Assembly (NCBI GenBank): GCA_963778115.1
Contig: CAVZSV010000001.1
Location: 65,011-129,010 of the forward strand
DNA from: an uncultured delta proteobacterium
GTDB lineage: Bacteria > Bdellovibrionota > FAC87 > UBA2466
Direction: 5' to 3'
Length of the DNA stretch: 64,000 nucleotides
Shown here: in pieces, positions 36,831 to 55,782 of the stretch
Layout of the letters: every line of letters starts with the position of its first letter
Position numbering within the stretch: the stretch's first letter is position 1
Notes under the pieces: generated by a model
Databases searched by the model: none
What the model was told of the DNA's origin: nothing
The model's input: the letters and a program-made list of their open reading frames with translations, nothing else
Position numbers and translations under genes: made by a program

Positions 36831-36993
36831 AGTAAATCTGAATGACTTGGACCTAGACGGGTGGATTTTGGTCCCCAGCAGTCTCACCAAAATCGAGTAG
36901 TTCGCCATAACGGACACCCCATTCCACATCGGTAACGCTACGTTCGCGGCTCAAGTGGACGAATTTCAAACTTGATGCTATCCCCTACTCAGC

Positions 36994-37425: not shown

Positions 37426-37596
37426 GTTCGCTGCAACAACACGCCCAACCCGATACTGACTGCAAACGAGTGAAGCCAGCTTTATAGTTCATGATGCACT
37501 TCGTTTGGGTAGGTCTTTCTCACCTGAAGGATTCCAACCAATTTTTCGTTGTCAGCCATCATAGCTTTTCTTTCTACGCTTTCATTGTCTTGAAGC

Positions 37597-40020: not shown

Positions 40021-40125
40021 CGGTAGGCAGTCCTCCGCGTATTACTTCTGACAGCCTTGGAAGTATGCAAACGCCGTTCCTGAATAAGGCTCTAGTGAAT
40101 CCTTGAATTCCCTCAGTTAACGTGA

Positions 40126-40944
40126 TCAAAGCAGCGATCGCGGAAATTCCACGGCATCGATCACAAGATAAGCGTTATTAACGCTCGGTTTAAGAGTGAG
40201 GACGTAGTGTCCGGTCTTTAACTTGGCCCCCACTTGGGCCGAGTATGGGACAGCCAGGTGACAAACGCCGCCCGCCGCTAATACTACGGCGTCGCCCTGC
40301 TGGCGCCACACGTTTCCACCACTACTTTTTTCGTTGAAGAACTTAGTCAAAATGGGTGCGATGGCACTATTACATTCCCCTTTGGAAGCGCTGTTACCGA
40401 GCGAAAGTAACTTCAAAGCACTCTGCGCGACGACCGAGGGAGTATCATCCGACTTGGCCCAGTTAAAAGCCACTGAATAGCTGGTCTCGATCTCGGCGAA
40501 GTAGTTCATTCGAAAACTAACTTCAGATTCACTATCGGGAGTCGCAATGATGTATTCCCAGCCCGTGTGAGGCTCTAAATTTCCCTTGGCCCGATTATTT
40601 GCGGGTATTTCCGACCAAAGATAGGGCACAAGCAGATGGCAGCTATTTCCACGAGCAACGATCGATGCCTCGCCGTTCTGTAGGAACCTGCACTGCTTTG
40701 CAGGACAAAACGCTGCATAGTTTTGACAATTCTTCATTAGGTCAGACGCGTTCTTATAGCCATCATGTTGATGGTAGTATTTGGCCTCTTTTGAAAATAG
40801 CGACACGTAGCCATTGCAATCCTGCCCTAGGCTCGAGAAGAGCTTGTGAAGAAGCGGAGCCATATCCTTCGTCGAACAAGGAACAGCCATTACCGACGGT
40901 CCAACAACGCCGAGTGCAAATAAAGCTAAAGCAAATAAGCGCAT
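40126..40944 (-). CDS. Secreted Cys-rich hypothetical protein
   Basis: Signal peptide (MRLFALALFALGVVGPSVMA) and multiple Cys residues. Confidence 0.45.
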   Translation of the reverse strand: MRLFALALFALGVVGPSVMAVPCSTKDMAPLLHKLFSSLGQDCNGYVSLFSKEAKYYHQHDGYKNASDLMKNCQNYAAFCPAKQCRFLQNGEASIVARGNSCHLLVPYLWSEIPANNRAKGNLEPHTGWEYIIATPDSESEVSFRMNYFAEIETSYSVAFNWAKSDDTPSVVAQSALKLLSLGNSASKGECNSAIAPILTKFFNEKSSGGNVWRQQGDAVVLAAGGVCHLAVPYSAQVGAKLKTGHYVLTLKPSVNNAYLVIDAVEFPRSLL

Positions 40945-40983
40945 ATAAATCTTTCCCTCTCCCCTTACTTATCCGAAAATTAG

Positions 40984-41078
40984 AAGGTGTCACTCTCCTT
41001 TCGGGCCCTTTAGGAACGGGTCACCCAATAGGCAATATGACCCGTACCTTTTGAGCCCGCTGGGAGAGTGACACTTTT
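40984..41078. repeat. ~95-bp imperfect palindromic (MITE/REP-like) element, copy 1
   Basis: GTGTCACTCTCC...GGGAGAGTGACAC outer arms with long inner arms. It forms a ~45-bp stem. Confidence 0.75.
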
Positions 41079-41110
41079 CGGACTATAATTAGTCGTAAAG
41101 GAGACTACCT

Positions 41111-41494
41111 ATGCAAACTAAAATACAGCTTGTGGTTCGAGTACTTCTTGGAGCCCTGTTTCTTTTTGGGGGTATCGCCTTCTTCTTTACGACACCTCCC
41201 GCGCTGACCGGCGACATGGCTACCTATTTTGCCGGTCTCGTTGCTTCCCACTATTTCTTTTACCTTCTTAAATTTAGCGAGATCGTGGTGGGTGCGTTCC
41301 TCGTTTCAGGCTTTTTCGTTCCCCTGGCCTTAGTTATCCTTGCTCCTATTTCCCTTAACATCCTTCTCGTTCACATCTTCTTAGAACCTAAAGGCCTTCC
41401 CACGGCTATAGCAATAGCGATCGCTGTTGTTTACCTCGGGTTTTTCTCCCCCAGCTACAGTCCCGTACTAAGAAAATTGTTTGTTCCCAAGTGA
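41111..41494 (+). CDS. Small 4-TM membrane protein of unknown function
   Basis: 127-aa ORF that is almost entirely hydrophobic. It is flanked on both sides by the palindromic elements. Confidence 0.5.
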   Translation: MQTKIQLVVRVLLGALFLFGGIAFFFTTPPALTGDMATYFAGLVASHYFFYLLKFSEIVVGAFLVSGFFVPLALVILAPISLNILLVHIFLEPKGLPTAIAIAIAVVYLGFFSPSYSPVLRKLFVPK

Positions 41495-41513
41495 GTGGAA
41501 CAACAAGAAGGCA

Positions 41514-41612
41514 AGAAGGTGTCACTCTCCTAGCGGGCTCAAAAGGTACGGGTCATACTCAAACTCCAATATGACCCGTTCCAAAAGGGCCCGCTAGGAG
41601 AGTGACACTTCT
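41514..41612. repeat. ~100-bp palindromic element, copy 2, in inverted orientation relative to copy 1
   Basis: It shares the arms AAGGTGTCACTCTCCTAGCGGGCTCAAAAGGTACGGGTCA / TGACCCGTTCCAAAAGGGCCCGCTAGGAGAGTGACACTT with copy 1. Confidence 0.75.
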
Positions 41613-41663
41613 TAGGGTCATCGATCTTCCTATGGTGTCGCCTGTGCATATAGGAGGTCATTC

Positions 41664-42062
41664 ATGCAGCAACAAGAAACAAATGGACCGAAATCCGGTC
41701 GCTTCGAGTTTCAAAAGTGGTCCGTCTATCAAAGGGCACTTCTTTTCGTGAAGGCAAGTTTTCGACTTTGCGATAGGTTCCCTAAACAATCGGTAACTGG
41801 ATTGCGAGATCAGTTTCGTAGAGCGAGTCAGTCTATTCCTCTAAATATTGCGGAAGGCTGTTCGAGATATTCTTCTAAGGATAAGGCAAATTTTTGGAGA
41901 GTAGCTAAGGGTTCGGTGTTTGAGTGTGTAGCGATTTTGGATTTGGTAAGGACGATGGAATTGGTGGAAGAAGGTATCGATGATTTGGAAATTGAGTTGG
42001 AGCATTTGGGGAAGATGTTGTCGGGGTTGATTCGATTTATTGAGACTAATCCGAGGAAATAA
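41664..42062 (+). CDS. Four-helix-bundle protein (23S rRNA intervening-sequence protein family, TIGR02436; Avd-like fold)
   Basis: YQRALLFVKASFRLCDRFPK...RDQFRRASQSIPLNIAEG...FWRVAKGSVFECVAILDL is the characteristic family pattern. Confidence 0.85.
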   Translation: MQQQETNGPKSGRFEFQKWSVYQRALLFVKASFRLCDRFPKQSVTGLRDQFRRASQSIPLNIAEGCSRYSSKDKANFWRVAKGSVFECVAILDLVRTMELVEEGIDDLEIELEHLGKMLSGLIRFIETNPRK

Positions 42063-42203
42063 GAGTCCGATGGCGGGACGCAAATTTGATGGAACCTAGG
42101 TTGAGAGGGTTTGGAATTTTCACAACATTAACCGGCTACGCCGGGCTGGAGGTTAAGATTAAACTTAAGGGTAACCTTAATAGTTATGGCGGGGCGGACG
42201 GGG
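41924..42203 (+). repeat. 280-bp direct repeat, copy A. It covers the 3' end of the four-helix-bundle gene plus 140 bp downstream, and ends in the 17-bp core ATGGCGGGGCGGACGGG (42186-42202)
   Basis: About 97% identical to 49588-49867. Confidence 0.85.
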
Positions 42204-42322
42204 CGCGTTAGGCGTGATCCGCGAAGTTGAAGAGATCGTTCGAAAATAACAAATGACGACGAGACACTCGTGTTTCGCGACTGAACGAAACTGCACCGAA
42301 ATGAAAGAGATCACCATGTCAT

Positions 42323-42347
42323 GTCCCGAAACGTCCCGATCGGGACC
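42323..42347. promoter_or_regulatory. GTCCCGAAACGTCCCGATCGGGAC. A direct-plus-inverted GTCCC(R) repeat cluster, boundary element copy A
   Basis: Two direct GTCCCGA copies plus the palindrome GTCCCGATCGGGAC, located ~120 bp downstream of the 17-bp core. Confidence 0.5.
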
Positions 42348-42583
42348 GCATTAAAACGGTCTCGGTTGGACTTCGGGATACGTTTTTTCCTTTTCTGCCC
42401 GCCAACTTTTCAAGACCACATTTGAAAGGAATGAGTATGAAACTCTTTCAGTGGATAGGAAGCCTAATGGCCATCGCTTGCCTTATGGAAATTGCTCACA
42501 ACCCCAGGTACTTAATGACACTCAACAAGGGCCAGCACCACACTTGACTCGGTTTAACGACGAACTGGTAAAGGGAGGAATGA

Positions 42584-42955
42584 CTATCTCTTCCGGTTGC
42601 TCTCTACATAATGGAAGATCTCTGGCAAACACTTATCGAAAACATCGGTGATGTCGATGCCGTAGATCCTTTTCGCACGGGCAATAATTTTCTTGCGGTA
42701 GGCTTCGTACGGTTTTTTACCTGCGGGCCCAAAGTCGAAAATAGTAGACCGGTCGGTAATGAGCGCCTCTGGGTGTTTGAGAACATGGAGCAAGAAATGG
42801 TCTGCGATGTCCGAGACGAAATTAAGCTTCTCTTGTGAAGCAACAACGACCGTTTGTCCTTTAAACGGTCCTTTGTCTAGCTTGAACGGAGGAAACTTGT
42901 CATCGATGCGTCTCTTCTTCATGGCAGCAAACCTTGCTACAAACTGGGGAAGCAA
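42584..42955 (-). CDS. Hypothetical protein
   Basis: 123-aa ORF with no recognised domain. It is the first gene inside module 1. Confidence 0.3.
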   Translation of the reverse strand: MLPQFVARFAAMKKRRIDDKFPPFKLDKGPFKGQTVVVASQEKLNFVSDIADHFLLHVLKHPEALITDRSTIFDFGPAGKKPYEAYRKKIIARAKRIYGIDITDVFDKCLPEIFHYVESNRKR

Positions 42956-43137
42956 TCAATGAAAAGCCATCGGTGTGACGCTCCCCTATTACCCTGGCGT
43001 ACCGTTCCTCTCGGAGGCATAATCACCGAGCCAGGAGATCGATCGCGAGCTATTTATTAACTATCTGAAATTACAAAAGTATTCGGTTACCGGTAAATTA
43101 CTTCTTATGCTAATATTGGCGTCGTGGAGAATGGATC

Positions 43138-43401
43138 ATGAAAGAATTGAAAAACAAACCTGAAGAAACGAAGGAGCCATCGCTTTACGAACAGGCGATG
43201 CGGGCTAAGCCGCGATTTGACTCAAAAGAAGAAGCGATCGAATTCTATACAAATAAATTAAATGCACTTGCCTCAAAGCGAGTGACTACAGTTCCGAAAA
43301 TACTTACTGAAGCAGAAACATCTCCTGTCTTTGATGAAGATTTTCTGGAAGCTCGCAATCTTTGGAACTCTCTCTCTAGCGTGAAGGCTCTCTCGAAGTA
43401 A
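43138..43401 (+). CDS. Hypothetical small protein
   Basis: 87-aa ORF. Confidence 0.25.
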   Translation: MKELKNKPEETKEPSLYEQAMRAKPRFDSKEEAIEFYTNKLNALASKRVTTVPKILTEAETSPVFDEDFLEARNLWNSLSSVKALSK

Positions 43402-43473
43402 TCCATGGCATGGGCCGATCTAGTCTTCTTGCGAGTCGCTTGCGCAGTGTTGGTTTGCTTGCAACTTGGTTCA

Positions 43474-44340
43474 TCATGCGGCGGTCTTCCTCCTATGGGA
43501 TTTCGCTTCAGCTGCGGCACGATGATACTTGTGGGCAATCGCCGAAAGGTCCACGGTCGGCGAGGGTAATTTCATTTTCAGATTTTCCAGGGTGCTCGTG
43601 ATTATCTGGGAGATAGCAAGATCGCGGAACCATTTGTGGTCCGATGGGATAACGAACCATGGGGCGTGCTTGGTATTGGTCTTGTGCAATAGATCCTCAT
43701 ACGCCTTCGTATACTCATCCCAGTACTCCCGCTCTTTATAATCAGAATCACTGATTTTCCAATTTCTGGCTGGGTCATCCAATCTCTTCTTAAAGCGTGC
43801 GAGCTGTTCTTCCTTCGATATGTGTAAGAAAAACTTGAGGATGGTCGTGTTGTTTTGGATAGCAAGAAGCCTTTCGAAATCATTGATGAGATCGAAGCGC
43901 TTGGACCACTCTTTTTGAGGCACAAGTTTATGGACTCGAACGACGAGAACATCCTCATAATGGGAGCGATTAAAAATAGCAACACTGCCCTTACGAGGTG
44001 CATGGGGGTGCACCCGCCACAGGAAGTCGTGTTCCAATTCTTCCGGGCTCGGTTGTTTAAAGGACGCAACGACGCACCCTTGAGGATTCATACCCGTCAA
44101 AACGTGTCTTACGACGCCGTCCTTACCTGCCCCATCCAGTCCTTGGAGAACAATAAGAAGGGAATGTGTATTCTCGGCGTACATCAGATATTGCAGTTGA
44201 TCCATCTTCTGCAGATGTTTTTGGATCACGGGCAGTCCTTCTCTGTGGGATTCGTGCTTTCCATGACTGCTAGGACTTAAGTCTGCGAGTCTGACTTTGG
44301 CGCCTGGCTCAATGAATAGTTTCTCTCGATAGTTCTCCAT
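43474..44340 (-). CDS. ppk2: Polyphosphate kinase 2 (PPK2) family polyphosphate:nucleotide phosphotransferase
   Basis: Walker A LLIVLQGLDGAGKDG, the lid/Walker B region, and conserved ...RVHPHAP...NRSHYEDVLVVRVH. Confidence 0.85.
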   Translation of the reverse strand: MENYREKLFIEPGAKVRLADLSPSSHGKHESHREGLPVIQKHLQKMDQLQYLMYAENTHSLLIVLQGLDGAGKDGVVRHVLTGMNPQGCVVASFKQPSPEELEHDFLWRVHPHAPRKGSVAIFNRSHYEDVLVVRVHKLVPQKEWSKRFDLINDFERLLAIQNNTTILKFFLHISKEEQLARFKKRLDDPARNWKISDSDYKEREYWDEYTKAYEDLLHKTNTKHAPWFVIPSDHKWFRDLAISQIITSTLENLKMKLPSPTVDLSAIAHKYHRAAAEAKSHRRKTAA

Positions 44341-44374
44341 ATTCCTCTCCCATTATTCTTGCAAAAACCAGGGA

Positions 44375-46888
44375 CTAAGAGGCTTCTCTCGTGGGCAGAG
44401 AGCCTTTAACAGTTTGAAGTAATTTTGAAGCCGGTGCCGAAACTTTGTTGGCTTGACCCGAATCCAGTATTCGATACGCGAGAAGCTTCAATCGGTCGTT
44501 TAGAAGCGCCCATGTTGCGGCATAAGCCCACACGAAAAACGCCCATCCCCATCCTAAGGGCGTCATAAACAGACCGTACACCGCAATCAACGTTGCTACG
44601 GTTTGTGTGCCTAGCACTGCTACCCACAAGATTCGGGCGGGACGAATAGACCAGAACGGTCCACGCGTCCTGGTCAGGAATATCGTCATATGTCCTGCGA
44701 CAGACAGTTTGAGGTACATTAGAGTTTGAATGTGATCGCGATCAAGATGAAAGACCCGCTCGCCAAGGTAGAAGAGAATGAATGCCGCTAAGACACCAAG
44801 GATGCCGAGCACAGTGGATATTCCGAGCACCAGGCGCATGTTCCACGCCTCCGGGGAATTCTTGTAATGAACTCTATCGTAAGCAATGGACAGAATAGCT
44901 CCGTCATTAAGTAAGGCCAACATGACGATCATGACTGCGGTCACTGGATAGAAGTTAAATACCAGGATCGAAAGAGTCATGAATAAGAGTACTCGCAAGG
45001 TCTCAGCGATTCGGTAAATCGCATAACTGTTCATCCGCTGAAAAATTTTACGACTCTCCTTTATAGCCGTGACTATTACGGATAGTCCCGGCGTCATGAG
45101 AACGATCGATGCCGCGGCACGAGCTGCATCCGTCGCATCCGAAACCGCGATACCGCAGTCGGCCTTCTTGAGAGCGGGAGCATCATTAACCCCATCGCCG
45201 GTCATGCCCACGATGTGGCCGCGTTTCTGGAGAACATCTACAATGTGAAACTTATGCTCCGGAAATACCTGCGCGAAACCATCCGATTTCTCAATGGAGT
45301 CTGCGAGCTCTTTAGTCTCCTCGTGCTTACTATCGGCAAACCCGCTGGCATTCAGGATATTGGTGCCCAGTCCCAACTTCTTGGCCGTTTCCCGAGCGAT
45401 TGCCATCTGGTCGCCCGTTACCATCTTGATGTTGACTCCCATCTGTCTGGCAGTGGTAATGGTCGCCTTGGCGTCTTCTCTTGGGGGATCGAAGAGCGGC
45501 AATACCCCTAAAAACTGCCACGCACCGTCGGCGCTTGTCCGAGCTACTCCAAGCGAGCGAAAACCGCGTGCGGCAAATTCATTCACGGCCTTTTCGACGT
45601 CTGCTTGGATCTTTCCGGCGTTTGCCGACAATTGCAGGACTACTTGGGGTGCTCCTTTTGTCGTCTTAAACTCTTTTCCGTCCGTTCCCTTCACCGTGGC
45701 TTCCGTACGCTTATGCACTGGATCGAACGGGAGGAAGTGAATCACCTGATAGCCCTTGAGTGCGGATTCGCTTTTCAGGCCCTTCAGAACGGCCAGGTCG
45801 ATAGTGTCTTTATCGTCCGCTCGTGACGCCAGAGCCGCACTTAGAATAAGATCATCCAACGTCGTTCCATTTACGGCGAATGGATCACCCAAGGTCAGTT
45901 TGTTCTGGGTCAAGGTGCCGGTCTTATCCGCGCACAGAACATCCACTCCTGCTAATTCCTCGATAGCGGTGAGGCGCGTCACAATCGCCTGCTCCTTGGC
46001 CAGAATTCGAGCCCCCACCGCCATCGTCACTGAAAGCACTGTGGGCATCGCTACGGGAATAGCGGCTACCGTCAACACTAGAGCAAACTGCAATGTGGTG
46101 AGAATCGGATCTCCCCTGAAGACAGCGATCGTAATAATCATCGCCACCAAAATAACGGCGAACACGATCAGATAATTACCAATCTTCAAAACGGCCTTCT
46201 GGAAATGACTGACGGTTCGTGCTTCGGCTACGAGTTCCGCGGTCTTTCCGAAAAAGGTGTTCTGACCCGTGGCATAGACGAGCGCATCTATTTCACCTTG
46301 GCGGACAACGGAACCGGAAAAGATCGCTTCCCCGGGCTTGCGCGTTGCAGGCAATGATTCACCGGTTAGCGTCGACTCATCCACTTCTATCGGGTCACCT
46401 GCAAGTAGACGCGCGTCCGCCGGTACAATGTCCCCCAATCGCACACGAATGACATCGCCCGGAACTAGATCACGCGCTGGCGCCGAGATCCACTGATTGT
46501 CGCGTCTCACCCGAGCGTTAATGGCAAGCTTTGCTTTAAGGGCCTCGATGGCGTTACCCGCCTGGCGTTCCTCCCAGAATCCCACGATGGCGTTGGAAAG
46601 TAACAATACGAGAATGATCAAGAAATCGGGCCAGTGGCGAGCTACCGCGGAAAGAATTACGGCCGCCTCGATCATCCACGGAATCGGTCCCCAAAAGTAG
46701 CTCAGAAACTTTAGAAATAGGTTCGTCTTCTTCTCTTCAATTGCGTTGGGACCATATTGGAGGAGCCGCTTCCGCGCCTCAGCTAGGCTGAGGCCGTCCG
46801 GCGATGCTCCTAACTTTTTTTCAAGTTCCGGTAGAGGCAATGATTTTAGATCGGCGTGGCCATGTGACTTAACCGTATTAGACATCAT
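44375..46888 (-). CDS. P-type ATPase, P3A (plasma-membrane H+-ATPase-like) subfamily
   Basis: Phosphorylation motif CADKTGTLT, plus TGES and MVTGDQ, and hinge GDGVNDAPALKKAD. The N-terminus (GPNAIEEKK..FLKFLSYFWGPIPWMIEAAVI) closely parallels plant/fungal AHA/PMA1 H+-ATPases. Confidence 0.9.
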   Translation of the reverse strand: MMSNTVKSHGHADLKSLPLPELEKKLGASPDGLSLAEARKRLLQYGPNAIEEKKTNLFLKFLSYFWGPIPWMIEAAVILSAVARHWPDFLIILVLLLSNAIVGFWEERQAGNAIEALKAKLAINARVRRDNQWISAPARDLVPGDVIRVRLGDIVPADARLLAGDPIEVDESTLTGESLPATRKPGEAIFSGSVVRQGEIDALVYATGQNTFFGKTAELVAEARTVSHFQKAVLKIGNYLIVFAVILVAMIITIAVFRGDPILTTLQFALVLTVAAIPVAMPTVLSVTMAVGARILAKEQAIVTRLTAIEELAGVDVLCADKTGTLTQNKLTLGDPFAVNGTTLDDLILSAALASRADDKDTIDLAVLKGLKSESALKGYQVIHFLPFDPVHKRTEATVKGTDGKEFKTTKGAPQVVLQLSANAGKIQADVEKAVNEFAARGFRSLGVARTSADGAWQFLGVLPLFDPPREDAKATITTARQMGVNIKMVTGDQMAIARETAKKLGLGTNILNASGFADSKHEETKELADSIEKSDGFAQVFPEHKFHIVDVLQKRGHIVGMTGDGVNDAPALKKADCGIAVSDATDAARAAASIVLMTPGLSVIVTAIKESRKIFQRMNSYAIYRIAETLRVLLFMTLSILVFNFYPVTAVMIVMLALLNDGAILSIAYDRVHYKNSPEAWNMRLVLGISTVLGILGVLAAFILFYLGERVFHLDRDHIQTLMYLKLSVAGHMTIFLTRTRGPFWSIRPARILWVAVLGTQTVATLIAVYGLFMTPLGWGWAFFVWAYAATWALLNDRLKLLAYRILDSGQANKVSAPASKLLQTVKGSLPTREAS

Positions 46889-47163
46889 CAGCGTGCTCCT
46901 TTTTCCGCTTCTGCATCACGGTGTGCGGATTAACTAGCGGGTCTTGGGTTATCACGCACAGATGGTCTAGCCAAGATGTTAGAAGCGGAAGGTCTGTCCG
47001 TTTTGGACGGCGAGTGGTCTCAGGACTCATTTTGGTGTTGGGACTTTATATGGTCTACAAGGGAATATTTACCTAAGATTTCACTGGTTCACCCCACATA
47101 ACCGAAGACACATTTTGATTATTGTTGACTCCGTACTATAGTACGGAGTCTATAATTTGAGGT

Positions 47164-47568
47164 GTGGATATGACTATTGGCAAACTGGCGGAGGCAGCGG
47201 GGGTCGGCGTGGAGACCATCCGTTTTTATGAGCGAAAAGGTCTCATCAAAAAGCCGCAGCGCAAAGACGGCGGATTTCGTTACTACTCAGACGAGGAAGC
47301 ATCAAGAGTACGGTTTGTAAAACGGGCCCAGGAGTTGGGGTTCACGCTACGCGAAGTGAAAGATCTCCTGGACCTTCAATCCAAGCGCAAGGTGACCGGC
47401 TCGCAGGTCCAAAAGAGGGCTCAAGAGAAAATAACCGAGATCCATAAAAAGATTTCTGACTTGAAACAAATGGAAGCGTCACTCCAGCGCCTTGCCGAAG
47501 TCTGCGGAGATGGCGAACAAGCCATCCGAGAATGCAAAATTTTCGACTGTTTTGGAAAAGGTTGCTGA
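47164..47568 (+). CDS. MerR-family metal(loid)-responsive regulator with a C-terminal Cys cluster
   Basis: MerR HTH (IGKLAEAAGVGVETIRFYERKGLI...ELGFTLREV), a coiled coil, then C-x8-C...C-x5-C. Confidence 0.85.
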   Translation: MDMTIGKLAEAAGVGVETIRFYERKGLIKKPQRKDGGFRYYSDEEASRVRFVKRAQELGFTLREVKDLLDLQSKRKVTGSQVQKRAQEKITEIHKKISDLKQMEASLQRLAEVCGDGEQAIRECKIFDCFGKGC

Positions 47569-47582
47569 AGAAAGGATTAATT

Positions 47583-48023
47583 ATGAGACCTCACTTATCA
47601 ATGAATGTGAAAAGCCTCGAAAAGTCGGTCGACTTTTACCGGACGGTATTTGGAGTTGAGCCCCAAAAGCGATCCTCTACCTACGCAAAATTTGACCTCA
47701 ATGACCCCCTTTTTAATTTCACCATGCACGAAGTTTCTGAAGGAAGAGATGCGAGTCGGGTCAATCATCTAGGTATCGAAGTCGGAAGCGTTGAAGAGGT
47801 ATTAGCCTGGAAGAAACGGCTTGAAACGAAGAAAATACAAACTTTGTCCGAGGAGAACGCCGAATGTTGTTTTGCGAAGCAGGATAAATTTTGGTTCCAA
47901 GACCCTGACGGTAATTCCTGGGAAGTCTTTTTTGTTCACGAGCAGCTGCCCGTTGAAGGAGCGGAACCCCCAAGAACAGTATCGAAAGCGGGAGCCTGTT
48001 CTACCGCCTCCAAGTGTTGTTAG
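47583..48023 (+). CDS. VOC/glyoxalase-fold protein of the ArsI/CadI family. The ORF opens at 47532
   Basis: VOC fold with a vicinal Cys pair (ENAECCF), as in ArsI C-As lyases and CadI, plus a C-terminal Cys-rich tail (ACSTASKCC). It lies in an ars operon context. Confidence 0.65.
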   Translation: MRPHLSMNVKSLEKSVDFYRTVFGVEPQKRSSTYAKFDLNDPLFNFTMHEVSEGRDASRVNHLGIEVGSVEEVLAWKKRLETKKIQTLSEENAECCFAKQDKFWFQDPDGNSWEVFFVHEQLPVEGAEPPRTVSKAGACSTASKCC

Positions 48024-48032
48024 TACCCATAG

Positions 48033-49088
48033 ATGAATCTCGTTAAAAAGAAACTGTCATTTCTCGACCGCTATCTGACTCTATGGGTTTTCCTGGCAAT
48101 GGGATTAGGACTCCTTCTAAGTATCCGGGCACCCGGGCTCACTAACGCCCTTACCAGAATGAGTTATGGAACTACGTCCTTACCCATCGCCATCGGTCTT
48201 ATTTTGATGATGTATCCGCCCTTAGCAAAGGTGCGGTTCGAAGAACTTCCGCCGGTTTTTCGAAATCGAAGAGTTTTGCTTCTGTCCTTAGTTCAAAACT
48301 GGATTTTGGGACCGCTTTTAATGTTTGTTCTCGCGGTTATTTTCCTAAGGGATCGGCCGGAATATATGGCAGGGCTCATATTGATTGGGCTCGCCAGGTG
48401 CATTGCCATGGTCATCGTCTGGAACGAGCTTGCCGAAGGAAGCACTGAGTATTGCGCGGGGCTTGTCGCCTTCAATTCTATTTTTCAGATCCTCTTTTTC
48501 CCACTTTACGCCTATGTCTTTCTAACGGTACTTCCCAATGTTCTTGGGATTCAATCTTTGAAATTAGATGTCTCTATTGGAGAAATAGCGAGGTCCGTAG
48601 GAGCCTATCTGGGCATACCATTTTTGGCGGGGTTTCTGACACGCTTTATTCTACGGCCCCGAAAGGGAGCTGATTGGTATGACAAGAGTTTCGTGCCGTT
48701 TATCAGTCCAATCACGCTTGTAGCGCTCCTTTTTACAATCGCCGTGATGTTTTCCCTTAAAGGAAATCAGGTCGTTGAACTCCCGATGGAGACGTTGAGA
48801 ATCGCGCTGCCGATGGCGATCTATTTCATCGTGATGTTTTTCCTGTCTTTTGCCTTGAGCGAAAAGGCGGGCGCCAGTTATCCACAGGCTACCAGTCTTT
48901 CTTTCACCGCAGCCTCAAACAATTTTGAGTTGGCCATTGCCGTCGCGATTTCTACCTTTGGGCTCCATAGTGGGGTTTCCTTTGCGACCGTAATCGGTCC
49001 CCTTGTTGAGGTGCCCGTGCTGATTTCACTCGTTCGGGCCGCTTTTTGGTTTAAGAAACGCTGGCCTCTGAAGGCAGAAATGAGGTGA
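48033..49088 (+). CDS. acr3: Arsenite efflux permease, ACR3 family
   Basis: The 10-TM bile/arsenite/riboflavin transporter fold with ACR3 signatures ([43 protein letters not shown]). Confidence 0.9.
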
Positions 49089-49092
49089 TGAA

Positions 49093-49560
49093 ATGAATAT
49101 CCTATTTATGTGTGTTGCCAATTCAGCTCGCAGCCAAATGGCCGAAGGGTTAGCCAAAAAAATATTTGATTCTTCAGTTCGGGTTGAAAGCGCCGGTTCG
49201 AATCCAAGCAAGGTCAATCCATTTGCGATTAAGGTAATGGAAGAAGTCGGGGTGGACTTAACTCAACACTATTCCAAATCCTACGATGAGCTGGAGCCGG
49301 CATTCATCGTCAAACTCGATTATGTCATCACCCTTTGTGCCGAGGAAGTGTGTCCTCAAATGGTATCTCGGGCAAAAAAAATCAACTGGCCTCTCTCTGA
49401 TCCTGCTAACAAAGCGGAAAATGACGAAATTCAATTGGCGACCTTTAGGGAAACTCGTAACTCACTCCTTTCTCGCCTTAGGGATTTCGCGAAGCAAAAT
49501 GGGATTAAATGGAAAAGCGGCGAAAGCGCGACCCACTGTTCTCTATCTCGACCGTCATAG
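49093..49560 (+). CDS. arsC: Arsenate reductase ArsC (LMW phosphotyrosine-phosphatase family)
   Basis: ILFMCVANSARSQMAEG is the CX5R P-loop of the LMW-PTP. It is the last gene of the ars operon. Confidence 0.75.
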   Translation: MNILFMCVANSARSQMAEGLAKKIFDSSVRVESAGSNPSKVNPFAIKVMEEVGVDLTQHYSKSYDELEPAFIVKLDYVITLCAEEVCPQMVSRAKKINWPLSDPANKAENDEIQLATFRETRNSLLSRLRDFAKQNGIKWKSGESATHCSLSRPS

Positions 49561-49587
49561 AGTCCGGCAATTTCTGCTGCGAGGATC

Positions 49588-49867
49588 GGTGTTTGAGTGT
49601 GTAGCGATTTTGGATTTGGTAAGGACGATGGAATTGGTGGAAGAAGGTATCGATGATTTGGAAATTGAGTTGGAGCATTTGGGGAAGATGTTGTCGGTGT
49701 TGATTCGATTTATTGAGACTAATCCGAGGAAATAAGAGTCCGATGGCGGGACGCAAATTTGATGGAACCTAGGTTGAGAGGGTTTGGAATTTTCGCAACA
49801 TTAACCGGCTACGCCGGTCTGGAGGTTAAGATTAAACTTAAGGGTAACCTTAATAGTTATGGCGGGG
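49588..49867 (+). repeat. 280-bp direct repeat, copy B. It contains a 5'-truncated copy of the four-helix-bundle gene 3' end (a gene fragment) and the 17-bp core at 49859-49875
   Basis: Near-identical to copy A. The ORF-track ORF 49286-49735 is a read-through artefact fusing the arsC antisense/out-of-frame region to this fragment. Confidence 0.85.
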
Positions 49868-49993
49868 CGGACGGGATTCTTTAGGACGATTTTGCAACGC
49901 GTTGGATCGTAACGATTATTAATAATCACAAAAGCTTACTCGTAAATTCGACATGACCGAAAGCGCACCAAACTGCCACTACTTGCCATTCCT

Positions 49994-50013
49994 GTCCCAC
50001 AGCCGTCCCACAC
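49994..50013. promoter_or_regulatory. CCTGTCCCACAGCCGTCCCACAC. GTCCCACA direct repeat, boundary element copy B
   Basis: Same architecture and offset from the core as copy A. It lies 57 bp upstream of the xis-like gene. Confidence 0.5.
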
Positions 50014-50069
50014 TTGAACCGTACGAACCGACCTTAACGAACACTTAGGCACACAATGAAGGAGGTACT

Positions 50070-50303
50070 ATGACTGACAAAAATGAGCCCGAGCAGATGG
50101 CTGCAGAAAATGACTATCGATTAGTTTGGACGTTTGATGATGTTGCCCGTGAGCTTCAGTGCTCTAAACGCCTGGTTGAAAAGCTTGTGCAAAAAGATCG
50201 TATTCCCCATGCAAAGGTGGGACGGCTTGTTCGGTTCAGTCCAGCCAGAATTAAAGAATGGATAGAGAAAGAGGGACGAGATGAATGCCTTATGCACCAT
50301 TGA
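50070..50303 (+). CDS. Excisionase/AlpA-family HTH DNA-binding protein
   Basis: 77 aa, ...FDDVARELQCSKRLVEKLVQKDRIPHAKVGRLVRFSPARIKEWIE matches the Xis/MerR-like winged-HTH 'excisionase family' pattern. Confidence 0.6.
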   Translation: MTDKNEPEQMAAENDYRLVWTFDDVARELQCSKRLVEKLVQKDRIPHAKVGRLVRFSPARIKEWIEKEGRDECLMHH

Positions 50304-50763
50304 TAGCGGCAGTAATTCCATCGAACGTAAAAGAGAGAGCCCATTTCGCTTTGGCGGCGAGAATAATCTGTGGCGAAGTACAGTCCTTATTGATCTTAAC
50401 GGCAATTATCTTTTTTCCCAATTCAATCGCCTTTTCAATTTCCCATTTCACCCATTCGCTGGCGTAAGTAGTGCCTCCAATTAGACAGAGAAAATGAGTC
50501 GCACCCGAGATCTTTGCGGAAATGGCTCGCTTAATAACCGCGGCATTAGTACTGTCGATAGAAATATCGGCCGATTGATCGCTCATTCCAAAGTCGAAAT
50601 CTCCATTCTTGTCCCAAGCAAGTAGCAGGTTTTTATAATGTTTGTCGTTATCAAAATCATAGCTGATAAAAATTCTTGTTTTTGCCACTCTTGCAACCCT
50701 CCCAAAAAGTTCTTTATTGTGGTGAGTCGTGATAAATATGTAAAGGAATTTCTCCCGGGTCAT
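50290..50763 (-). CDS. TIR-like protein of the ThsB/DUF1863 type
   Basis: RIFISYDFDND...W opening, with CLIGGTTYASEWVKWEIEKAIELGKKIIAVKIN. This closely parallels Bacillus ThsB (CVLIGSQTFNRRWVRYEIMKSIEKGNKIIGIHIN). Confidence 0.7.
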   Translation of the reverse strand: MTREKFLYIFITTHHNKELFGRVARVAKTRIFISYDFDNDKHYKNLLLAWDKNGDFDFGMSDQSADISIDSTNAAVIKRAISAKISGATHFLCLIGGTTYASEWVKWEIEKAIELGKKIIAVKINKDCTSPQIILAAKAKWALSFTFDGITAAINGA

Positions 50764-50862
50764 GGCGCTGCGCTCCAGGAATGGAAGAGGGACTTCGGGA
50801 TAACACTTTCCGTGGAAGAGAATGGGGGCTACGCGTTGAACAAGCCGCTTTGCTTCGTGCTA

Positions 50863-52197
50863 ATGCCATTTGGGGAAAAAGTGGACACGACAGGCACTAA
50901 AGTCGATTTCGATCGGGTTTATCAAGAGGTAATCGCGCCGGCGATTTCCGAATCAGGTATGGAGTGTATCCGTGCTGATGAAGAACAGGTCGGGGGCATC
51001 ATTCATAAACCAATGTTTGAGCGCTTAGTTCTTTGCGAATATGCCGTTGTTGATTTAACGACCGCCAACGCTAACGTGTTTTACGAACTAGGCGTTCGGC
51101 ACGCGGTTCGTCCTTGGAGCACGGTGCTGTTGTTTTCAGCTCCAACTCGATTACCTTTCGATGTTGCTCCCCTGCGCGCGATGCCATATAAGTTGCAAAA
51201 AAATGGCCACCCTGCTGAAGTTACTAAAACGAGGGCGTCCCTTGTAAAACGACTAAATACGGCACGAGCGGCAGCGAAAGATAAGCCCGCTCACGACAGT
51301 CCCGTTTTTCAGCTGCTCGATGGATTCCCCGAGATCGACCATACTAAGACCGATGTGTTTAGAGACCGAGTGAAATACTCGGAGGGAATAAAGCAGAGTC
51401 TCGCTGAAGCCAGGAAAAAAGGGCTCGACGCAGTAAAGGCGGTTGAAACCACTCTTGGCGACATTGCGACTCAAGATATTGGTGTAGCCGTGGACCTATT
51501 TCTTTCTTATCGTGCCGTTAGCGCCTGGAAAGATATGGTCGATCTGGTTGGGAAAATGGCGCAACCGCTTGCTGCGACGGTGATGATTCAAGAACAACTT
51601 GCTTTCGCTTTGAATCGTCTCCGAAAGAGTGATGAGGCGGAAGTCGTCTTGGTGAATTTGCTAAAGACCAGAGGAAAGAGTAGCGAGACGCTAGGGATTT
51701 TAGGACGCGTTTACAAAGATCGGTGGCTGGAAGCAGAAAAGTCCGGAGAGCAAAAGGTCGCTCAAGGTTGGCTCGAAAAGGCTATTGAGACTTACCTTCG
51801 CGGCTTTGAGGCCGATTGGCGTGATGCCTATCCGGGAATCAATGCGGTTACATTAATGGAAGTAAGGACCCCACCCGATCCTAGACGAAAAAAGCTGATT
51901 CCCGTTGTGATGTACTCAGTTGAACAACGCCTCGATCGTGATGAGCCGGACTATTGGGACCACGCCACACTTCTTGAAATCTCCGTACTAGGTCGAGACG
52001 AAATCACTGGCAAGGAGGCGCTAAACAATGCCCTTATCTCTATGCGAGAGGCATGGGAGGGCACGTCAACGGCTGGAAATTTGCTCATAATCCGAAAAGT
52101 AAGGGAGACGCGCAATGAGACCTTCAATTGGGCCATGGAAGCTGAGCAAGCCATTACGGAGCGGGTGCGAGTCATATCGCAGGCTGCAAAAAACTGA
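50863..52197 (+). CDS. Two-domain protein with an N-terminal nucleoside-2-deoxyribosyltransferase-like (TIR/SLOG-related Rossmannoid) domain and a C-terminal alpha-helical TPR-like domain. The ORF opens at 50638, with the likely start at MPFGEK
   Basis: FVLMPFG...VDFDRVY...ADLTTANANVFYELGVRHAV resembles the NDT-family catalytic-Glu motif (D..(S)GT.FElG). The remaining ~300 aa are helical-repeat. It lies divergent to the ThsB-like gene. Confidence 0.45.
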   Translation: MPFGEKVDTTGTKVDFDRVYQEVIAPAISESGMECIRADEEQVGGIIHKPMFERLVLCEYAVVDLTTANANVFYELGVRHAVRPWSTVLLFSAPTRLPFDVAPLRAMPYKLQKNGHPAEVTKTRASLVKRLNTARAAAKDKPAHDSPVFQLLDGFPEIDHTKTDVFRDRVKYSEGIKQSLAEARKKGLDAVKAVETTLGDIATQDIGVAVDLFLSYRAVSAWKDMVDLVGKMAQPLAATVMIQEQLAFALNRLRKSDEAEVVLVNLLKTRGKSSETLGILGRVYKDRWLEAEKSGEQKVAQGWLEKAIETYLRGFEADWRDAYPGINAVTLMEVRTPPDPRRKKLIPVVMYSVEQRLDRDEPDYWDHATLLEISVLGRDEITGKEALNNALISMREAWEGTSTAGNLLIIRKVRETRNETFNWAMEAEQAITERVRVISQAAKN

Positions 52198-52232
52198 TAT
52201 AGATCCTGCTTTCCGGCTCACTACCTTTTGGT

Positions 52233-52982
52233 TCAAGACCCTTTCGGTGAGTCTAGATGCCGCAATAATTCAATTGCGGCCTTAAGCGGATCTTTGGGCA
52301 GCTTAGGAAATAATCTACTTGCTTCTCCTCCGAAGTCATTCGGAATAGGCGAATCATGTCGATGAGCTTCACTAATCGCAATAGCATGATTCATCTCTAG
52401 CGGTATAAACACTACCTTCTTATTCGCATCTATCGCGCCTTTAATTTCATCGGCAGCCACGCGTCCACCTCCGATTCCAATAAACACGTCACCGGTCTCA
52501 ATAATCACACCAGATGTAGGAGATAATCGCTGTTTTTGAGGATCGATCCCCCCCCAGAGACTATCTTCGATAATGAAAACTTTGTCGACTGACCTACAGG
52601 ATTGTATTCCCTTCTCCTTGGCTATCGAGGAGATAATTCCGACTGTTGTAAAACCTAATTCTTTCGCGATCGGGTATATCTCTCCAATACCGTCGCAGCT
52701 GGCCCCAATTGTGATAACCACTTTCCGTGGATTCAACTCCTTTAGAATCGTTCTTGCGTACCGTTTCATGGTCATTGGATTCTCGTAACCGAGGGAAGAG
52801 AACCCTAAGAAGGTCACACTTTTTTTACCGGCTGATTGGTAGTATTTTTTGATCGGCTCGCTGGGATTTGATCCTTCCAGTTCGCTCATGACGGTGACCG
52901 TATATATCGAACAGCTAAGTATTACTAGCAGGGTTAAGCGGTCTGGAAGCGAACGCCAAGACTTCCATTTCTCCATCGACAT
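52233..52982 (-). CDS. Membrane-anchored SLOG/LOG-family Rossmann-fold protein (TM-SLOG)
   Basis: N-terminal TM helix (LTLLVILSCSIYTVTVM). The Rossmann core with G-rich loops (VVITIGASCDGIGE...VFIGIGGGRVAADEIKGA) is reminiscent of the LOG/SLOG PGGxGTxxE motif. It is the last gene of the TIR operon. Confidence 0.5.
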   Translation of the reverse strand: MSMEKWKSWRSLPDRLTLLVILSCSIYTVTVMSELEGSNPSEPIKKYYQSAGKKSVTFLGFSSLGYENPMTMKRYARTILKELNPRKVVITIGASCDGIGEIYPIAKELGFTTVGIISSIAKEKGIQSCRSVDKVFIIEDSLWGGIDPQKQRLSPTSGVIIETGDVFIGIGGGRVAADEIKGAIDANKKVVFIPLEMNHAIAISEAHRHDSPIPNDFGGEASRLFPKLPKDPLKAAIELLRHLDSPKGS

Positions 52983-53009
52983 AATCCTTTTTGCTCTATG
53001 CTCTACCGC

Positions 53010-53567
53010 CTAAGAAACGTTTCTACTCATTTTCTCTCGACTGTTTATTATTTTGCTTTTGTCGGAACTCTTACGAATCGCTTCTTCGATCGCCGTTTTG
53101 ATGACAGCGGGATCGGAAGTCCAATCAATATGGTGAATGTATCCCGATACAATGTTCTCGTGCAAGCGATCGGCTACAATTGCAGAATTGTTCTCACCTC
53201 TCGTAACCGAGGGTAAAATAATGCCGAGTACTGCGTGTTCAAGGTGGAGCGTTGAGTAAATTTCCCAGTCCACATACTTTCTCTTCCAGGTTTCTGCCCC
53301 GCACAAAACTACGGTAACAGATGAGCCTTTAATGAACTCTTCGCGTATTCGACGATTAACGTATTCCGTATCGTTACTACGAATACTGCCATCGACAGAC
53401 TGGTCATAGAACACCTCATAGTTGGACGAAAAAAGTTTCTTGAATTGTTCAAACCAGGTCCAGTCGTTTGCGTGGTGGAAGCTAATAAATACCTTGCGTT
53501 TGGTCTGTTGGTTCAATATCCCGGAAAGACCTGCGAACCTGGTCGCAAAGCGATTGTCAGAACTCAT
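53010..53567 (-). CDS. TIR-like protein of the ThsB/DUF1863 type
   Basis: KVFISFHHANDWTWF...TVVLCGAETWKRKYVDWEI is the same signature as ThsB. Confidence 0.7.
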   Translation of the reverse strand: MSSDNRFATRFAGLSGILNQQTKRKVFISFHHANDWTWFEQFKKLFSSNYEVFYDQSVDGSIRSNDTEYVNRRIREEFIKGSSVTVVLCGAETWKRKYVDWEIYSTLHLEHAVLGIILPSVTRGENNSAIVADRLHENIVSGYIHHIDWTSDPAVIKTAIEEAIRKSSDKSKIINSREKMSRNVS

Positions 53568-53576
53568 ATTAGTCCC

Positions 53577-54116: not shown

Positions 54117-54124
54117 AGTAATTT

Positions 54125-55024: not shown

Positions 55025-55046
55025 CCTACTCCTCGTTGAATCGCGA

Positions 55047-55328: not shown

Positions 55329-55329
55329 C

Positions 55330-55662: not shown

Positions 55663-55782
55663 TTTTCCTATTATAAGCTATAACTAATAATTAGTTCAAG
55701 CTAATACTCAAAACAACGACAACGGGTACGAGTCGAGGACTCGTCCGTTTCTGATTTAACTTATTGATATCATTGAGAAAAA

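Follow-up and report, generated by a model that had tools for sequence, protein, structure and literature searches.

A probable array of integrase-less islands at a tRNA-Asp gene, with a co-duplicated chromosomal flank

In a 64,000-nt stretch of DNA from an uncultured delta proteobacterium (the window), the 3' end of a gene for a four-helix-bundle (4HB) protein is present twice, as a direct repeat. Which sequence was the target of integration at this locus, and how did the end of a protein-coding gene come to be repeated?

We found that the repeat is 290 bp long. A repeat search matched 41910-42209 with 49583-49882 (spacing 7673 bp). The in-register alignment of copy A (41913-42202) with copy B (49586-49875), both on the plus strand, is unbroken over 290 bp and has three mismatches: G>T at 42025 (a Gly121Val change in the 4HB fragment), A>G at 42122 and G>T at 42145. 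Copy A consists of the final 150 nt of the intact 4HB gene (41664-42062, plus strand; 132 aa; full-length Pfam match to PF05635, 3.1e-27) and 140 nt downstream, namely an intergenic tail of 123 nt and a tRNA-derived core of 17 nt. Copy B contains a 5'-truncated 4HB fragment, the tail and a second core (49859-49875). It starts in the middle of a codon, 22 nt past the arsC stop codon (49560), and homology to copy A begins abruptly at 49583-49586; this left edge (49561-49585) is an illegitimate joint. The source contig annotation has copy B as a 78-aa ORF (P0100). The right edge is the core, beyond which the copies split into two different P' arms.

An earlier note on this DNA had described 280-bp near-identical repeats with about 8 mismatches. 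The repeat is real, but the coordinates given for copy B (49588-49867) were 9 bp off relative to copy A, and this slip in register probably explains the higher mismatch count. Other parts of that description hold up: copy A as the intact 3' end of the gene plus 140 bp, copy B as a truncated duplicate that is not a second full-length paralog, the same 17-bp core closing both, and the pair as island-junction repeats around a site-specific attachment site. An independent Logan contig (L067, sample ERR11523675) is 100% identical to window positions 49846-55931 and ends exactly at the repeats, indicating that the repeats exist in the raw data of the same strain.

We found that the core is the end of a tRNA gene. 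The reverse complement of the 17-mer ATGGCGGGGCGGACGGG matches the last 16 nt (+1) of tRNA-Asp(GTC). In the relatives L001, L002, L151 and L152, ARAGORN calls minus-strand tRNA-Asp genes whose first 17 nt are identical to this 17-mer. The 17-mer occurs three times within the window, at 42186, 49859 and 55783 (100 shuffles: mean 0.12, none reaching three). Core 1 (42186-42202, minus strand) comprises the 3' half of the T-stem, the 3' strand of the acceptor, the discriminator and CCA, plus 1 nt, and its junction is of the type flank-core-P'. The match to tRNA-Asp extends over 17 nt in core 1, 18 nt in core 2 and 22 nt in core 3. Core 3 (55783-55804, minus strand) has no 4HB sequence; its left flank, ending in GAGAAAAAA, resembles the P sides of integrase-bearing relatives.

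The site is empty in relatives. Left of it in the window is chromosomal backbone, in which a DoxX-family membrane protein gene (Pfam DoxX; 41111-41494, plus strand; 87% aa identical to L151 2420-2803) precedes the 4HB gene. L151 shares the histidine kinase (HK), DoxX and 4HB (83% aa) genes with the window and has an intact tRNA-Asp where the window has the array. L151 is thus a syntenic island-free allele of the 4HB locus, of the kind that the earlier note proposed to look for. The 4HB orthologues (77-84% aa identity) lie directly before an intact, convergent tRNA-Asp in L001, L151 and L152; in L002 the tRNA is 4.8 kb after the orthologue. The tail (42063-42185), which runs from the 4HB stop codon to the tRNA 3' end, has a conserved hairpin (42132-42144) and then AGGTTAAG...CTTAATAGTT, with a terminator-like site on the minus strand. 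It is kept in L001, L002, L003, L151 and L152, with compensatory changes in the stem (CCGGC/GCCGG vs GCGAC/GTCGC). Because the core starts 123 nt past the 4HB stop codon, integration there never touches the 4HB gene, which is a bystander, and the 4HB 3' end is a co-duplicated passenger flank. The intact tRNA-Asp of this genome is absent from the 64,000-nt window; its body is expected past position 64000, as is the far end of the array.

In the window, each of the three cores is followed by a tandem GTCCC arm-type site, +133 to +136 nt away; the same holds for three cores in L150 and for the site in L077 (shuffled windows contain a mean of 0.9 such sites). The P' arm of module 1 (42203-42385, plus strand) has the site GTCCCGAAACGTCCC at 42323-42337, +135 from the core, and can be aligned to its P' counterparts in L077 and L069. 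Module 1 cargo (42584-49560; Pfam) encodes, on the minus strand, a 123-aa protein of unassigned function, PPK2 (43474-44340) and a P-type ATPase (44375-46888), and also MerR (47164-47568), a glyoxalase/ArsI-like protein (47532-48023), an ACR3-type carrier (48033-49088) and the LMW-PTP ArsC (49093-49560); neither an integrase nor a P arm was found in this module. Module 2 has a P' arm at 49876-50040 (plus strand; tandem site 49994-50009, +133) and an orphan excisionase-like HTH_17 gene (50070-50303, plus strand; Pfam). Its cargo (50290-55662; Pfam, PADLOC ThsB hits) comprises three ThsB-like TIR proteins, a TPR-S/MAP3K_TRAF_bd protein, a SLOG-like protein, a SLATT protein and an HTH_3 + Gp49 toxin-antitoxin pair. 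The P' arm of module 3 (55805-56001, plus strand) has a tandem site at 55921-55936 (+136) and inverted GTGGGAC sites, and is 93% identical to 63474-63603. The module 3 cargo (56023-63357; Pfam) comprises a response regulator, a HAMP histidine kinase, an NMT1-type binding protein, Usp, DUF302 and small ORFs. The fourth P'-arm copy (63474-63603, plus strand; tandem site 63523-63538) has no recognisable core ahead of it and represents what erosion has left of the beginning of another module, which runs off the window; a minus-strand ORF at the window end continues past position 64000. Searches for an integrase in the window gave only E>0.7 by tblastn and a best E of 2.2 with the family HMM over all six frames, and Pfam found none in 33.9-64 kb.

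The family to which these modules belong can be seen in relatives. Homologues of the module 2 excisionase in 11 metagenomic relatives are always followed by a ~440-aa tyrosine integrase (PF00589) and then, wherever the contig reaches far enough, by a tRNA gene (tRNA-Asp in L071). Relatives with this gene pair beside tRNA-Asp have the same core/arm layout as the window, and L077 and L069 have P-core-P' sites with the same core and the same arrangement of arms. This shared layout, together with the arm-type site at each of the three cores, indicates that at least three integrase-less modules are stacked at tRNA-Asp, with arsenic/PPK2/P-ATPase, TIR/SLATT defence and two-component/Usp cargo. The flank duplication also recurs: L150, with at least eight cores, has a 635-bp repeat (~99% identical) consisting of a 62-aa ORF, the full 4HB gene, the tail and the core. 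Its right edge is again at the core and its left edge is elsewhere than in the window, making it an independent recurrence of the same duplication.

As a whole, the locus is best explained, and with good confidence, as a tRNA-Asp island array with a co-duplicated flank rather than as a gene-targeted insertion. The array itself we consider very likely; the account of the flank is held with moderate confidence. The locus would be a tRNA-Asp(GTC) integration hot spot with the ancestral backbone HK - DoxX - 4HB, a short tail and a convergent tRNA-Asp. Integrative elements of one family, carrying an excisionase and a lambda/P4-like tyrosine integrase, would recombine in the tRNA 3' end (T-loop/T-stem region), with predicted tandem GTCCC arm-type sites ~72-92 nt from the core on the integrase side and 133-136 nt on the other. 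Every integration would leave 17-22 nt of the tRNA 3' end behind at the distal end of the element and shift older elements away from the tRNA. The window then has at least three elements, head to tail, and since each of them has lost its integrase and integrase-side arm, all are decayed, CIME-like modules. The 290-bp repeat joins the 17-nt tRNA fragment to 273 nt of chromosomal sequence, made up of the 4HB 3' end and the tail. We infer that the flank was most likely duplicated by one of two routes. In route (a), flank, core and module 1 would first be duplicated in tandem (7.7 kb), and the integrase would then remove the complete second copy by recombining core with core. In route (b), an aberrantly circularised fragment from a sibling strain would have re-inserted, either at the core or through RecA recombination inside the 290 bp. 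Today, without a P arm, module 1 would most likely exit by RecA recombination between the 290-bp copies. Because the core is the opposite-strand 3' end of tRNA-Asp, what has formed here is a commonplace accumulation of decayed islands at a tRNA gene, including a duplicated piece of the adjacent 4HB gene; structures of this kind are known, and this one departs from them only slightly.

Some observations count against this explanation, among them the absence of the intact tRNA-Asp from the window. The 1% divergence of the copies fits poorly with an intragenomic duplication that happened very recently. On the other side of 4HB, L002 carries homologues of the ars genes and of the response-regulator/kinase pair, so the cargo of modules 1 and 3 may have long resided in this neighbourhood and not be separately imported islands. 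L152 has four cores on the opposite side of the 4HB gene, and L150 has a third, divergent copy of 4HB that is likewise adjacent to a core; the 4HB-tail unit thus returns to the tRNA-proximal position more often than a single accident predicts. The unit might instead be a small mobile cassette that lands beside tRNA 3' ends and re-homes after each integration, copy B being a second insertion whose 5' half was later deleted. The OZ242383.1 chromosome has at least 50 copies (96-99% identity) of a 568-bp unit with only a PF05635 ORF, sharp ends and similar subterminal hairpins. The 4HB-tail unit adjoins tRNA-Asp in six genomes and tRNA-Glu in L003 and L153, L001, L002 and L003 have no other synteny among them, and in L152 the unit is placed between an older array and the intact tRNA. 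However, the duplicated units differ at the left end (mid-gene in the window, 190 nt upstream including the 62-aa ORF in L150), the HK-DoxX-4HB synteny with L151 marks copy A as backbone, most relatives have one full copy per genome, and no transposase accompanies the unit. We consider a cassette unlikely. An assembly artefact is more improbable still: an island-free or module-2-first chromosome and, apart from it, a 7.7-kb circle of module 1 and a single repeat copy, misthreaded through the 290-bp repeat, would give the same assembly graph as an integrated element, and the same-strain Logan contigs stop at the repeats, but the three copy differences are fixed and lie within 57-112 nt of unique flanks, so that short reads can phase the copies, and the unrelated assembly L150 has an equivalent structure.

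The earlier note had taken the protein-coding 4HB gene, not a tRNA, as the target, with an island entering its 3' end and bringing a replacement 3' end. Islands at protein-gene 3' ends are known (PMC5704250), and copy A does complete an intact gene of which copy B is the 5'-truncated duplicate. This model is highly improbable, and the supposed replacement is passenger flank duplicated alongside. The repeat terminates in minus-strand tRNA-Asp(GTC) sequence, convergent with 4HB, and the copies diverge only 140 nt beyond the stop codon; tRNA-Asp sits exactly there in island-free relatives; core 3 adjoins no 4HB sequence; the attP-type sites of L077 and L069 share the tRNA sequence only; and the mid-codon left edge, joined to DNA downstream of arsC, gives no hint of a recombination site. 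Two further readings invoke reverse transcription. A read-through 4HB transcript, with the 17-18-nt complement of the tRNA-Asp 3' end as primer-binding site, could yield 5'-truncated copies fixed at the tRNA end. The core has the length of a classical retroviral primer-binding site, and the copies do have a fixed end at the tRNA complement and variable 5' ends. Recombination of DNA at a proven att core gives the fixed end without new assumptions, though, and copy B sits between island arms, as att junctions should, making a retro-copy extremely doubtful. Alternatively, copies A and B could be the template and variable repeats of an Avd-associated diversity-generating retroelement (DGR). Both readings draw on PF05635, the Avd family, whose members are reported to act with reverse transcriptases in DGRs (PMC10053308). 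No reverse transcriptase was found among the scanned proteins, which counts against both. The mismatches (G>T, A>G, G>T) are not adenine-specific, just one of the three involving A, and the repeat is mostly non-coding and ends in a tRNA fragment. We agree with the earlier note that a DGR is unlikely, and regard its probability as negligible.

The preferred reading, a tRNA-Asp island array with a co-duplicated flank, has precedents. Islands in tandem that are bordered by 3' fragments of an RNA gene, and of which some have no integration genes, are known from the ssrA-specific islands of Dehalococcoides (PMC3146451). There, as here, a single RNA gene is followed by multiple islands in head-to-tail order, each bordered by a ~20-bp direct repeat of the 3' end of that gene; the cargo is strain-specific, and islands without integration genes are read as cis-mobilizable remnants. 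In contrast, the target here is tRNA-Asp rather than tmRNA, the relatives carry a tyrosine integrase with arm-type sites rather than a CcrB-like serine recombinase, and one junction repeat is lengthened by 273 nt of chromosomal flank. Accretion of decayed CIMEs also has precedent in the ICESt1/ICESt3 model of CIME/ICE-IME accretion (PMC5704250), in which decayed elements without integration or transfer genes keep flanking att-type sites and newcomers integrate alongside, giving composite arrays. Unlike those elements, the window modules retain only the P' arm and core, and the window shows no functional helper element; with the integrase-side arm missing at every junction, the modules may no longer be mobilizable even in trans. 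The 4HB gene belongs to the Pfam family (PF05635, '23S rRNA intervening-sequence protein') of the Coxiella IVS S23p (PMC4990558) and DGR Avd genes, and it too is placed hard against a structured-RNA gene. Here, however, the gene is part of the backbone and converges with a tRNA, outside an rRNA intervening sequence and without a neighbouring reverse transcriptase. Finally, L071, L077 and L069 resemble lambda/P4-type tRNA-targeting systems. They have an HTH_17 excisionase and a ~440-aa PF00589 integrase, their core matches the tRNA 3' end exactly, and direct-repeat arm sites flank it on either side. The window differs in that the integrase itself is absent, and the arm sites are putative, predicted from conservation.

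We found that the window contains a 290-bp direct repeat, each copy of which ends in a short core. A repeat search matched 41910-42209 to 49583-49882 (97% identity over 300 nt, spacing 7673 bp). Aligned in register, copy A (41913-42202) and copy B (49586-49875) were homologous without a break over 290 bp and differed at three positions (copy A to copy B: 42025 G>T, 42122 A>G, and 42145 G>T). The earlier note had paired two ranges that are 9 bp out of register and had counted about eight mismatches; its description of the copies as near-identical holds, but tabulation in register gave only the three differences. Copy A consists of the final 150 nt of a complete PF05635 four-helix-bundle (4HB) gene (41664-42062, plus strand) and 140 nt of downstream sequence. 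Copy B begins 22 nt past the stop codon of an arsC-type gene (49093-49560), and the in-register alignment bore out that it starts mid-codon, is truncated at its 5' end, and shares the terminal 17-bp core. This 17-mer, ATGGCGGGGCGGACGGG, terminates both copies (cores 1 and 2, at 42186 and 49859) and occurs a third time at 55783 (core 3). The three occurrences compare with a mean of 0.12 in shuffled sequences, and no shuffle reached three.

It is unlikely that the repeat structure is an assembly artefact, because the three phased differences lie near unique flanking sequence and another assembly (contig L150, below) has a parallel structure. A Logan contig from run ERR11523675 was 100% identical to 49846-55931, and both of its ends fall within the repeats. 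Independent raw data therefore contain the same strain and these repeats.

The core matches one end of a tRNA gene in relatives. Orthologues of the 4HB gene were found in Pseudobdellovibrionaceae MAG contigs L001 (77% at the amino acid level), L151 (83%), and L152 (84%). In all three, an intact tRNA-Asp(GTC) gene lies on the opposite strand within about 35-60 nt after the orthologue, and the plus-strand start of this gene reads ATGGCGGGGCGGACGGGACTCGAACC.... The window 17-mer is the same as the first 17 nt of the minus-strand tRNA-Asp(GTC) gene in L001, L151, and a further relative, L002; the match to the tRNA extends for 17 nt at core 1, 18 nt at core 2, and 22 nt at core 3 before divergence. 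The 17-bp core is therefore the reverse complement of the tRNA-Asp 3' end. It comprises the 3' half of the T-stem, the acceptor 3' strand, the discriminator, CCA, and one flanking base. Only the relatives of the 4HB gene revealed the tRNA identity of the core. In the window itself, ARAGORN detected neither a tRNA nor a tmRNA, Rfam gave nothing relevant over the whole length at the gathering threshold or in 40900-42500 at E<=1, and a scan of metagenome contigs for the exact 27-mer spanning the tail and the core gave zero matches.

A search of relatives for an island-free 4HB locus, one of the checks proposed earlier, identified an unoccupied site in L151, where histidine kinase, DoxX, and 4HB genes are followed at once by tRNA-Asp. 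This left backbone of histidine kinase (window 34610-36196), DoxX (87% at the amino acid level), and 4HB is common to L151 and the window. Thus, L151 represents the island-free allele, with the tRNA gene at the insertion point. L001 likewise has tRNA-Asp directly after 4HB. In L002, the order is 4HB, a core-like variant, a 4.7-kb insert (IS transposase, Panacea antitoxin, and DUF4062), and an intact tRNA-Asp. For the window, the tRNA body is predicted beyond position 64000, where the array runs off; more than 21 kb of stacked islands would have displaced it out of view.

The earlier interpretation is partly supported by these results: the repeats are island junctions, as proposed, and the long near-identical direct repeat was borne out at 290 bp, but the target was wrong. 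The island had been taken to have integrated into the 3' end of the protein-coding 4HB gene and to have supplied a replacement 3' end. We found that the core starts 123 nt past the 4HB stop codon, and that the copies diverge 140 nt past the stop, outside the coding sequence. Core 3 is without 4HB sequence, the island-free alleles carry a tRNA at the insertion point, and the attP-type sites of two related elements (L077 and L069, below) carry only tRNA sequence. A diversity-generating retroelement, already judged unlikely in the note, is excluded, as no reverse transcriptase domain was present in the scanned proteins and the mismatches (two G>T and one A>G) are not confined to adenines.

A second junction variant, TGGCGGGGC(A/G)GAGTGGACGAnTATCGAAC, was observed at 1938, 2796, 4187, and 7226 in L150, at 10456 in L002, and at 7359 and 8391 in L152. 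It matches tRNA-Asp over only about 10 nt and then continues into a conserved sequence of its own. The variant is not compatible with a canonical tRNA 3' end, and it may mark a second element family at the same tRNA. The 'type-2' core variant TGGCGGGGCAGAGTGGACGATTATCGAACC (L150 and L002) gave no canonical tRNA 3' end fold by hand.

Sequences next to the cores link the array to a family of xis-int elements. A related block of 130-200 nt follows each of the three cores and is found once more at 63474. It is characterised by a pair of GTCCC motifs with a spacing of 10-11 nt, located at +135, +133, and +136 nt from cores 1, 2, and 3, respectively. We refer to this block as the P' arm. At the start of module 2 (the cargo block after core 2), 50070-50303 is an HTH_17 excisionase-like gene (Pfam). 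Its homologues in eleven metagenomic contigs are followed immediately by a gene for a ~440-aa PF00589 tyrosine integrase and, wherever the contig was long enough, a minus-strand tRNA gene comes after the xis-int pair. In one relative (L071) this is tRNA-Asp, and genes for an FtsK-like translocase and a replication-relaxation protein adjoin. In L077 and L069, the core is 17 or 29 nt of tRNA-Asp, a tandem GTCCC lies inside the 3' end of the integrase gene 72 nt before the core, and a P' block like those of the window follows, with its tandem motif at +135; the P' arms of the window align with the L077 and L069 arms. Judged by conservation, this layout would be that expected of a lambda/P4-like integrase, with predicted arm-type sites on both arms.

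The window itself contains only part of this layout. A tblastn search of the whole window with two family integrases revealed no integrase or relic (E>0.7), the best match of a family integrase HMM to all six-frame ORFs of the window had an E value of 2.2, and Pfam found no integrase in 33.9-64 kb, the range covered by the Pfam scan (ORFs of 1-33.8 kb were inspected as translations). There was no P-side tandem motif before any window core, and P arms (the integrase-side arms) are absent from the window. Related complete elements carry xis and int. No site-specific recombinase is present in the modules, and we therefore classed them as decayed remnants and not as functional islands.

The array is a stack of modules to the right of the backbone, which extends from the histidine kinase gene through DoxX to the 4HB gene and its intergenic tail (42063-42185). 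The tail is followed by core 1, the first P' arm, and module 1, which encodes an unknown 123-aa protein, PPK2, a P-type ATPase, MerR, a glyoxalase/ArsI-like protein, ACR3, and ArsC. Next come an illegitimate joint, the truncated 4HB fragment, a second copy of the tail, core 2, and the second P' arm. Module 2 continues after the orphan xis gene (50290-55662) and is a defence-type gene set, with three ThsB-like TIR proteins, TPR-S, SLOG-like, and SLATT proteins, and HTH_3/Gp49. The TIR proteins matched ThsB in PADLOC (best 1e-48), the TPR-S/MAP3K_TRAF_bd protein gave a weak TIR-effector match, and the SLATT protein has two domains; no ThsA-type gene was seen in module 2. The left flank of core 3, ...GAGAAAAAA, resembles the P sides of relatives. 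Core 3 and the third P' arm are followed by module 3 (response regulator, kinase, binding protein, Usp, and DUF302), a fourth P' arm without a core, and a further module that runs off the end of the window. Base composition did not shift sharply at the module borders.

Several features lie beside this array. Relative to the L151 backbone, the window has an insert of ~4.8 kb (36200-40944) between the histidine kinase and DoxX genes, which encodes a short transposase-like HTH fragment, a thioesterase, a 272-aa secreted protein, and an 807-aa NOV_C protein with weak PADLOC matches to the C-termini of TmtA/HmaA. Two composite palindromes of ~95 nt flank DoxX (40982-41077 and 41514-41610). Each is composed of a pair of inverted arms of ~40 nt (AAGGTGTCACTCTCC...GGGTCA). 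This motif was found at four places in the window and nowhere else, and the palindromes look like REP/MITE-type elements or bidirectional terminators. Homologues of genes at 47164-49560 and 56023-57959 are found in L002 (47-7259) on the other side of 4HB, inverted and in the same mutual order as in the window (MerR, ArsI-like, and ArsC 67-70%, response regulator/kinase 52-65% at the amino acid level). The neighbourhood has been rearranged around the 4HB-tRNA pair. Because these ars and regulator/kinase homologues lie across 4HB in L002, some of the cargo may be old residents, and the history of the array may include further rearrangements.

Copies A and B each form a junction in the order flank, core, P' arm. 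On the right, the repeat ends exactly where the tRNA fragment does, and the first and second P' arms start there. The left edge is an arbitrary point within a codon, joined to DNA just past arsC. A 149-aa ORF (49286-49735) starts inside arsC out of frame and crosses the joint into the truncated 4HB fragment, and a 78-aa version of it is annotated on the source contig (P0100). This ORF most probably arose as a side effect of the junction and is not a genuine gene. Before core 2, where canonical integration would put the integrase-side arm of module 1, the chromosomal flank occurs a second time. The presence of the flank copy in place of a P arm therefore requires one illegitimate joining combined with recombination in the core or close to it. 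Two routes would account for this. In one, a 7,673-bp tandem duplication of flank, core, and module 1 would have been followed by precise integrase-mediated loss of the second, complete copy of the island; the lack of xis, int, and a P arm in module 1 would then be explained as well. In the other, an aberrantly circularised fragment from a sibling strain would have been inserted, through the core or through RecA recombination in the shared 290 bp, which would explain the 1% divergence between the copies.

A duplicated flank was also found in L150 (JGI Ga0620602_000348; L149/L150). This contig has at least eight tRNA-Asp-type cores within 14 kb (1938-15560), and the modules between them are 0.9-3.2 kb with one to four genes, making the array almost cassette-like. 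The cargo includes Fic, an acetyltransferase, LysR and ADH, Shedu SduA, and two HTH_17 genes; none of the called genes encodes an integrase, and an intact tRNA is absent from the 26 kb. The contig also carries a 635-bp direct repeat (~99% identical, spacing 6249 bp) that spans a 62-aa ORF, an entire 4HB gene with its tail, and the first part of the core. As in the window, this repeat stops at the core on the right, whereas on the left it starts at a different point. A third, divergent 4HB copy (58% to the query) likewise abuts a core. Flank DNA between two cores would formally belong to a core-to-core module and be able to travel, which would account for this third copy.

The 4HB gene and its conserved non-coding tail (a hairpin with compensatory changes, then AGGTTAAG...CTTAATAGTT) stay at the tRNA 3' end even where no other synteny is left. 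They adjoin tRNA-Asp in six genomes, and in L152 they lie between an older array and the intact tRNA. Paralogous 4HB genes with the conserved tail are convergent with tRNA-Glu in L003 (3795-4336, CTC) and L153 (1474-2028, TTC; sequenced in the same run as the strain of the window), with an extra terminator hairpin in between. A Saccharibacteria locus (L054) has a 4HB gene between tRNA-Arg and tRNA-Lys. The window tail contains a single inverted GTCCC-like motif (42066-42080, GGCGGGAC), with GTGGGGAC as its counterpart in L151 and L152, 70-110 nt before the core; it may be fortuitous, or it may be a weak chromosome-side arm-type site.

One explanation of this association is that the 4HB gene and tail are actively kept at, or repeatedly copied to, the 3' side of tRNA genes. 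The unit would be self-mobile, on the model of a relative in the complete, unrelated chromosome OZ242383.1 (L006-L063). There, a 568-bp unit (for example 9902-10469) with a PF05635 ORF as its only gene is present in at least 50 dispersed copies of 96-99% identity, some head to tail. The ends of the unit are sharply defined, and each has a similar subterminal hairpin (CACCnnnGCAGAGCnnGGTGG). We saw neither a conserved target nor a transposase for this unit, which behaves like a non-autonomous mobile cassette. Alternatively, the tRNA would prime copying of a read-through 4HB transcript that ends in 17-18 nt of complementarity to the tRNA 3' end. If true, the 4HB unit would accompany tRNA integration hot spots in a way that has so far gone unrecognised. 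We consider active maintenance or copying improbable, however: the left ends of the duplicated units vary, copy A has backbone synteny, and most relatives have a single copy.

Other assignments were rejected. The 4HB gene and tail are not the native integrase-side end of the xis-int family, as the 4HB gene is in none of the 11 related loci (0/11) and the P arm in these loci is the 3' end of the integrase gene. Nor does copy A belong to an additional module to the left, given the histidine kinase-DoxX-4HB synteny with L151 and no core further left. The array is also not of the integron type, since it has no integrase, its modules measure 6-7.7 kb and carry genes in both orientations, and they are bounded by tRNA fragments, not attC sites.

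Together, these results remove a false lead, in that the apparent protein-coding, Avd-like target is the known tRNA 3'-end target on the opposite strand. Sequence-only scans should compare short G+C-rich junction cores with tRNA 3' ends on both strands. The analysis also defines the attachment-site architecture (core plus GTCCC sites at fixed distances) of xis/integrase elements of Bdellovibrionota-like bacteria, and indicates that arsenic-resistance and TIR/SLATT defence cargo is frozen in integrase-less modules. Two genomes now document a chromosomal flank duplicated into such arrays, and once between two cores it is potential cargo. Accretion of islands at an RNA gene, with decay to recombinase-less remnants, has been described for the ssrA islands of Dehalococcoides (PMC3146451) and for CIME/ICE accretion (PMC5704250). 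The structure in the window is a tRNA-anchored array of decayed integrative elements, which is a well-known kind, and the duplicated chromosomal flank is a modest twist on it that recurs in a relative. The array corresponds to the known picture of islands that accrete at an RNA gene and decay to recombinase-less remnants.
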